The notes beneath the pieces are model-generated. The model made no database searches. It saw only the letters and a list, made by a program, of their open reading frames with translations, and was not told the origin of the DNA. A program made the position numbers and the translations under genes. A stretch of DNA of 64,000 nt, taken from Escherichia coli (GTDB lineage: Bacteria > Pseudomonadota > Gammaproteobacteria > Enterobacterales > Enterobacteriaceae). This document shows positions 52,492 through 53,030 of this stretch, one piece after another. Position 1 is the stretch's first letter; each line of letters begins with the position of its first letter. The stretch lies in assembly GCF_051903065.1 (NCBI RefSeq), contig NZ_CP178438.1; one strand, 5' to 3'.

Positions 52492-53030
52492 CAATAATGC
52501 CGGAGGTTAATGTTAATGAATCACTGGCGTAGTTAACTGGATATCCATTTGTTTGCTATGAATAGTAATTAAAGTTGGTACAATTATTTATATGATTGAT
52601 GTAATTTCGTTTTTTATATGAAATATCAATTTAATATAATCCGAAAATAAAACATCTCTTCGCATGTAGAGAAACATGTCGATATGATAGTGCAGTGCAG
52701 ATCATGTCATCAGAGTAGGGCGGTAGCGTATTTAATCAGGGAAAGATTACGCAACGCTGCTTTTTTGTATTGAACGATTCGCATTTTATGTTTAAAAATT
52801 GCGATATTCCTTATTTCCTGAAGCTGTTTTTATTGCTTATACATGATCAAATACTCCTTACATAATTAAGGAGAACAAAATGGAACTTAATACACGCCAA
52901 CAATTTGTATTACTTAAATAGACCAGTGAAGGTACGTATCAGAATATCCGGTGAAGTGATTAATATTTCGTTGAATATTTCTCCGGATTTTTGAAACCTG
53001 CTGCTGTAGAAATTCTGAACAGGAGGAATT

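Follow-up and report, generated by a model that had tools for sequence, protein, structure and literature searches.

A transcription control region and untranslated leader, with an ops element and an ISAs1 scar, probably fills the AT-rich gap before an orphan T6SS island of Escherichia coli

Introduction

What does half a kilobase of AT-rich, apparently noncoding DNA do at the entrance of an orphan type VI secretion system (T6SS) island? In a 64,000-nucleotide stretch of Escherichia coli DNA (contig NZ_CP178438.1; the whole stretch is hereafter called the window), such a region separates yncG from a PAAR gene that is followed by vgrG. A preliminary description took it for an island boundary of the kind associated with horizontally acquired DNA and with H-NS-silenced promoters, and expected the small K-12 gene yncH to lie somewhere within it. 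As set out below, we consider it likely that the gap serves the orphan island (PAAR, VgrG, effector and immunity genes) as its transcription control region and 5' untranslated leader. The interpretation given in the preliminary description is supported by our analysis, and an ops site (the recruitment site of RfaH), which that description missed, and an insertion sequence (IS) scar are added to it.

Boundaries, composition and coding potential of the gap

The yncG reading frame ends at position 52491 and that of the 94-residue PAAR protein begins at 53031, so that the interval 52492-53030 corresponds exactly to the 539-nt gap between the yncG stop codon and the PAAR ATG (Pfam assigned GST_N to yncG and PAAR_motif to the downstream ORF). 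The GC content of this gap is 32.5%, versus 49.4% for the whole window and 57% for PAAR and VgrG together. When GC content was calculated in sliding fashion across the whole window, 0.4% of all 539-nt segments were found to be as AT-rich as the gap, the sole other stretch of comparable AT-richness being 57344-58281. Tracts of at least five A/T residues occur at 9.3 per kb in the gap versus 4.1 per kb; the AT-rich string quoted in the preliminary description corresponds to positions 52588-52642. The high-affinity H-NS motif TCGATAAATT has no match in the gap at two or fewer mismatches. These values confirm both the AT-richness of the stretch of about 540 bp upstream of PAAR and its contrast with the GC-rich vgrG gene.

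The longest plus-strand ORFs lying wholly within the gap encode 29-31 amino acids, and a single 51-aa ORF on the minus strand overlaps the PAAR start. Several ORFs of 29-31 aa, together with a 13-codon ORF that is preceded by a good Shine-Dalgarno (SD) sequence, could be taken to mean that the gap hides a small protein gene (yncH-like) or a small RNA, as could the annotation of a 70-aa yncH in the K-12 version of the gap and the fold of the leader, which is more stable than that of shuffled sequences as a whole (z -3.0). A tblastn search with K-12 YncH, however, gave no match in 52492-53030, and only two weak matches (E 0.09 and 0.6) elsewhere in the window. The gene is thereby ruled out in the gap and is absent rather than merely unplaced, contrary to the earlier expectation; the filler that follows yncG in K-12, which contains yncH, is a different sequence. 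Six small ORFs of the gap gave no Pfam match above threshold and were rejected as genes, since Pfam support was lacking. RefSeq annotates no gene in the gap of strain 33F4 (which is 100% identical over the query), of CFT073 or of enteroaggregative E. coli (EAEC) 042, and a scan of the gap for Rfam RNA families returned a single match, a weak and sub-threshold one to JUMPstart, with no other family. The 13-codon ORF is a fusion artefact that is absent from other leader copies (see below). A conserved protein-coding gene, which would have contradicted the description of the interval as noncoding, was thus found neither by Pfam nor by tblastn with YncH nor in the RefSeq annotation of the three strains, and we regard a hidden gene or small RNA as highly improbable.

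The variable island downstream

Pfam matches and the RefSeq annotation of 33F4 define the following features downstream of the gap:

53031-58173, plus strand: downstream transcription unit
53031-53315, plus strand: PAAR gene (Pfam)
53334-55481, plus strand: VgrG gene (Phage_GPD and gp5 domains)
55626-57713, plus strand: candidate M23-like effector gene, 695 aa (sub-threshold Pfam M23 match)
57706-58173, plus strand: putative immunity gene, its 3' end cut by IS1
58170-58937: IS1, inserted into the putative immunity gene at its 3' end
58941-59463: internally deleted ISAs1 remnant, directly after IS1 and before pptA

The M23 peptidase match of the candidate effector (23.5 bits versus 28.7) is located at its N-terminus, and the remaining ~540 residues are without a Pfam match. 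The putative immunity ORF encodes 155 aa here versus 167 aa in 33F4.

The sequence is homologous to K-12 up to the final codons of yncG (position ~52489 of the window) and becomes so again only past the right end of the ISAs1 remnant at 59463, before pptA. We therefore conclude that a variable island of ~7 kb at the K-12 RhsE site has its left edge at 52492, in agreement with the island boundary proposed earlier. Between the same flanking genes, K-12 contains yncH, the rhsE pseudogene, ydcD, yncI and ydcC. Given the IS1 insertion in its putative immunity gene, the island is partly decayed, and selection on its expression may therefore be relaxed.

Anatomy of the gap

The gap is a mosaic, composed of an AT-rich filler, a JUMPstart-like block that contains the ops element, an IS remnant, and a leader that belongs to the PAAR-vgrG module:

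52492-52692, plus strand: AT-rich filler after yncG, 28.4% GC
52613-52640, plus strand: predicted sigma70-like site TTTATA-16-TATAAT (10/12)
52659-52688, plus strand: predicted sigma70-like site TTCGCA-18-TATGAT (9/12)
52693-52730, plus strand: JUMPstart-like block, 52.6% GC, the sole GC-normal patch of the gap
52719-52730, plus strand: ops element GGCGGTAGCGTA (exact 11-mer match)
52737-52890, plus strand: left-end remnant of an ISAs1-family (H-repeat/ISEc1-like) element, 154 nt, about 29% of the gap
52880-52921, plus strand: 13-codon ORF (MELNTRQQFVLLK, then stop), the transposase SD and ATG fused to the PAAR leader
52891-53030, plus strand: PAAR-vgrG module leader, ending in an SD sequence
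52939-52994, plus strand: imperfect hairpin of considerable length, clamped by CCGG/CCGG, with A-UUUUU-G after it; its end is 36 nt from the PAAR ATG
53022-53027, plus strand: SD sequence AGGAGG, 3 nt before the PAAR ATG

The 3' third of the filler (about 52630-52692) shows homology to the sequence that precedes ops in the leaders of K-12 type found before rhsE and vgrG (described below), and in an alignment its last ~60 nt show roughly 60% identity to the sequences upstream of K-12 rhsE and of the vgrG gene adjacent to cusS. The TATGAT -10 element of the predicted site at 52659-52688 is aligned opposite TAAGAT of both of those leaders. Promoter-like sites are no more numerous in the gap than in shuffled sequences.

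With respect to PAAR, the ops element is on the non-template strand; it is located 312 nt upstream of the ATG of that gene and downstream of a predicted promoter. The element agrees with the consensus GGCGGTAGnnTG at 11 of 12 positions, with the GGTAG core intact. The surrounding block matched the Rfam JUMPstart model (RF01707) with 19.7 bits (E 0.38), under the gathering score of 35, through two conserved ends only, which are separated by the correct 18-nt spacing. Because the score is below gathering and only the two ends match, we refer to the block as JUMPstart-like and not as a member of RF01707. A 37-nt segment (52695-52731) is 92% identical to the sequence upstream of K-12 rhsE, while its flanks diverge, and TGCAGATCATGTnATCAG...GCGGTAGC is invariant in six sequences that represent three locus architectures and one paralogous locus.

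A GATC (Dam) site is found at 52700-52703, within the 25 invariant nt that separate the predicted -10 element from ops, and only half of a Fur-box-like sequence is visible near it. In EAEC, the sci1 cluster is under Fur and Dam control.

The ISAs1 remnant begins 6 nt after ops. It contains the inverted repeat CAGGGAAAGATTACGCAACGC, the 5' UTR, an SD sequence and 11 nt from the start of the transposase gene (ATGGAACTTAA), and shares 93.8% identity with the DNA that precedes ydcC in K-12, start codon included; its left inverted repeat at 52737 (which starts with CAGGG) matches the right inverted repeat at 59443-59463 as well as the ends of K-12 ydcC. Thousands of multi-copy matches are annotated as ISAs1 family transposase, and a repeat search of 48-64 kb found this short ISAs1 left end as the only repeat. 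The piece has neither an intact transposase gene nor both ends, since the PAAR leader takes over at 52891, and is a scar rather than an element. The transposase ATG is absent from a second PAAR leader in 33F4, and the 13-codon ORF is therefore an accidental product of the fusion and not a conserved gene.

Two architectures of the yncG locus each have a distinct ISAs1-family element close behind the ops 12-mer, at a distance of 6 nt in one and of 1 nt in the other (in the window, the 6-nt spacing is seen at 52730-52741). The transposases of these two members are 50% identical and their left ends 54% identical; the pair could reflect either an insertion hot spot or selection to retain ops. A third apparent adjacency of ops and a transposase, in EAEC 042, was rejected, the transposase being an integrase-core fragment and not ISAs1. 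A literature search for a link between JUMPstart and H-repeats gave nothing relevant.

The module leader that follows the scar travels with the genes downstream: positions 52888-54807 are repeated at 96% identity in 33F4 before the second PAAR gene, with no transposase ATG ahead of them. Across the survey set described below, this leader was found at 812 places in 687 genomes with PAAR always present, all 812 copies being at least 95% identical and this PAAR family occurring in 688 genomes only. Its hairpin (52939-52994) has a predicted folding energy of -24.4 kcal/mol (z -5.0, with 0 of 200 shuffles as stable), and was not flagged by a simple consensus terminator scan. The diverged second PAAR leader of CFT073 contains a 9-bp hairpin and a T7 run at the aligned position. 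These are the two leader variants available for comparison, and both keep a hairpin and T-run just before the SD sequence, with different 3' arms. In CFT073 the RfaH ChIP signal continues across the hairpin of that second leader. From its sequence, the hairpin at 52939-52994 may be an intrinsic terminator or attenuator, perhaps one that is overridden by RfaH.

The orthologous leader in CFT073

The leader of CFT073 c1882 is identical to the gap at 530 of 540 positions (98.1%; nine substitutions and one single-base indel). It occupies the same yncG-PAAR site and likewise contains the IS remnant and the ops 12-mer, whose distance from the PAAR ATG is also the same. The cargo after VgrG differs: here it is the M23-like effector, whereas CFT073 has DUF4123 and a second PAAR-VgrG-M35 module.

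Hustmyer et al. (2022, mBio; PMC9765446) reported this ops element at 1715753-1715764, 313 nt upstream of c1882, as one of eight CFT073 leader ops sites that yield an RfaH ChIP signal. In wild-type CFT073 the c1882 leader was bound by H-NS and the RNA polymerase signal was at background, and a sigma70 peak upstream of c1882 appeared only in a delta-hns delta-stpA strain (PMC9765446). That double mutant displayed an RfaH peak at 1715707-1723246 (7.5 kb, 1.72-fold) that was gone in delta-rfaH, and the authors termed c1882-c1889 a cryptic RfaH-regulated locus (PMC9765446). The peak starts 46 nt upstream of ops and spans PAAR, VgrG and the following genes. A supplementary table of an EAEC preprint (10.1101/2025.02.08.637259) places the same 12-mer beside EC042_RS08380 (PAAR), and the annotation of EAEC 042 has the same yncG-PAAR arrangement.

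The feature is essentially already known, being the orthologue of a characterised RfaH/H-NS target. H-NS occupancy of the wild-type CFT073 leader accords with the silencing suspected in the preliminary description, and by analogy with this 98%-identical orthologue, both H-NS binding and RfaH loading would be expected at the gap. The modest RfaH enrichment in CFT073, seen only after removal of both H-NS and StpA, counts against reading the gap as a control region.

In an alternative arrangement, PAAR and vgrG would be transcribed from a promoter that lies downstream of ops, within either the IS remnant or the PAAR leader, so that RfaH is bypassed. The sequence TATACA-17-CATAAT at 52838-52866 scores 9/12 as such a promoter, and in the K-12-type leader an RpoD site identified by genomic SELEX (TTGACT-17-TATTAC, with an H-NS mark) sits downstream of ops. 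The start predicted from the former, however, would be within or after the remnant SD sequence, and the K-12 SELEX sequence is absent from the window-type leader. In CFT073 the RfaH peak has its start at ops or a little upstream, a position that requires transcription through ops. We consider a bypass promoter very unlikely.

Distribution in E. coli

A survey of 5426 complete E. coli genomes gave the following counts:

Window-type leader: 687 genomes (812 places, all at least 95% identical)
K-12-type leader (ops block and ~330 nt of native leader): 3823 genomes
RIVM-type leader (GCGTAT followed directly by a different ISAs1 member and then by an Rhs gene): 143 genomes
61-nt promoter/ops block, any type: 4524 genomes

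The presence of this leader version in 687 of the 5426 genomes, with alternatives occupying the same site, fits the horizontal acquisition suggested earlier. A genome with the K-12-type leader usually has it twice, once at the rhsE site and once at the cusS-vgrG island. The spacer between yncH and rhsE in K-12 and the leader of the cusS-vgrG island (the RhsG site) share TGCAGATCATGTnATCAG...GCGGTAGC and, ahead of it, diverged homology over about 70 nt. Both then continue with about 330 nt of native sequence after ops, where the window instead has the IS remnant and the PAAR leader; yncH lies upstream in K-12, and the window is without it.

In the paralogous cusS-vgrG leader the same invariant block is accompanied by the ops variant AGCGGTAGCATA, about 335 nt upstream of vgrG. 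In K-12 MG1655 the rhsE pseudogene is preceded by the promoter-proximal block and the exact GGCGGTAGCGTA, at 1527577-1527614. Downstream of ops, in sequence that is missing from the window, K-12 has a PhoB ChIP site at position 1527862.

A scan of one genome per species for the conserved block returned a single contig, DXKH01000108.1, labelled as a Citrobacter sp. metagenome-assembled genome. The yncG/ops/ISAs1 junction of this contig is of the window type, and the contig shares 93-95% identity with the ansP-yncG region of the window; at that identity, either the Citrobacter label is doubtful or the region was transferred. The only contig found being Escherichia-like, the scan is uninformative on taxonomic range.

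The gap might instead be inert junk, made up of recombination and IS scars at an island junction, with ops retained as inherited baggage that has no regulatory role here. The IS fragment that occupies about 29% of the gap, the further IS1 and ISAs1 debris in the island, and predicted promoters that are no commoner than in shuffled sequence would all be in keeping with this. The ops block, however, is near-invariant across three architectures and a paralogue whose flanks are at about 60% identity or replaced, and the CFT073 orthologue recruits RfaH in vivo from this very site. We judge inert junk to be unlikely. On the strength of the alignments, the conservation of the ops block where both flanks have been replaced, in three architectures and again in the second vgrG island near cusS, appears to support the reading of the gap as a control region.

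A model for control of the island

We propose that H-NS and StpA would coat the AT-rich DNA and keep silent, under laboratory conditions, a sigma70 promoter that we infer to lie just upstream of ~52695. Upon initiation, RNA polymerase would pause at ops (52719-52730), about 25-70 nt into the transcript, and RfaH would load there on the exposed non-template strand. The RfaH-modified polymerase would then read through the 312-nt untranslated leader, including the IS scar and the terminator-like hairpin, and continue through the H-NS-bound genes of the island, with NusG and Rho excluded. That the island is expressed in this manner in the present strain is presumed from the orthologue. As to the origin of the leader, insertion of an ISAs1-family element 6 nt behind ops would have been followed by a deletion that joined the first 154 nt of the element to the PAAR-vgrG module leader.

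Two further ideas, which we regard as doubtful when taken together, concern the hairpin and the IS elements. The hairpin and U-run at the 5' edge of each PAAR-vgrG module might be a terminator that is passed only by RfaH-modified polymerase, in which case one ops element at the island entrance would gate a chain of serially stacked PAAR-VgrG-effector modules. ISAs1 elements might also favour insertion immediately 3' of ops, and H-repeat elements would then be mechanistically tied to RfaH-controlled leaders.

The control-region reading would account for an orphan island of T6SS spike and toxin genes that is silent yet expressible, a logic already demonstrated with the orthologue in CFT073. In most sequenced E. 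coli, related leaders with an ops element stand before rhsE/vgrG islands, the decayed rhsE of K-12 included. Since these leaders are widespread and ops has outlived at least two adjoining IS insertions, the distribution argues for RfaH control as a feature of such islands that is selected and extends across the species. For annotation, the gap is best described as a regulatory leader with an IS remnant, and is no place in which to seek yncH. The modest extensions made here, namely the mosaic leader, the ops block upstream of both K-12 rhsE and cusS-vgrG, and the two ISAs1 elements that abut ops, are not described in the accessible literature.

Comparison with known RfaH-controlled systems

The JUMPstart/ops leaders of the classical RfaH regulon (rfa (waa), rfb/wzx, kps, hly and tra) resemble the gap in that each has a 12-nt ops element on the non-template strand within a long 5' leader, and in that they head horizontally acquired, H-NS-bound operons for envelope or secretion functions. 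The gap block and the Rfam JUMPstart model have the same 7+18+13 spacing of their conserved ends. Base 12 of the gap ops is A, unlike the G of the classical element, and the central 18 nt are unrelated. The cargo also differs, consisting of a T6SS spike and effector here and of polysaccharide, haemolysin and conjugation genes in the classical operons. Unlike wzx, kps, hly and rfa, the CFT073 c1882 locus is cryptic in rich medium.

Control of E. coli T6SS genes through RfaH and ops would be a property shared with ops1 and ops2 of EAEC Sci1 (10.1101/2025.02.08.637259) and with the ops element of CFT073 tssH (c3392). Those elements belong to the main structural clusters, in the hcp/clpV intergenic region, whereas the ops element of the gap stands before an orphan PAAR-VgrG-effector island that is far from the structural genes.
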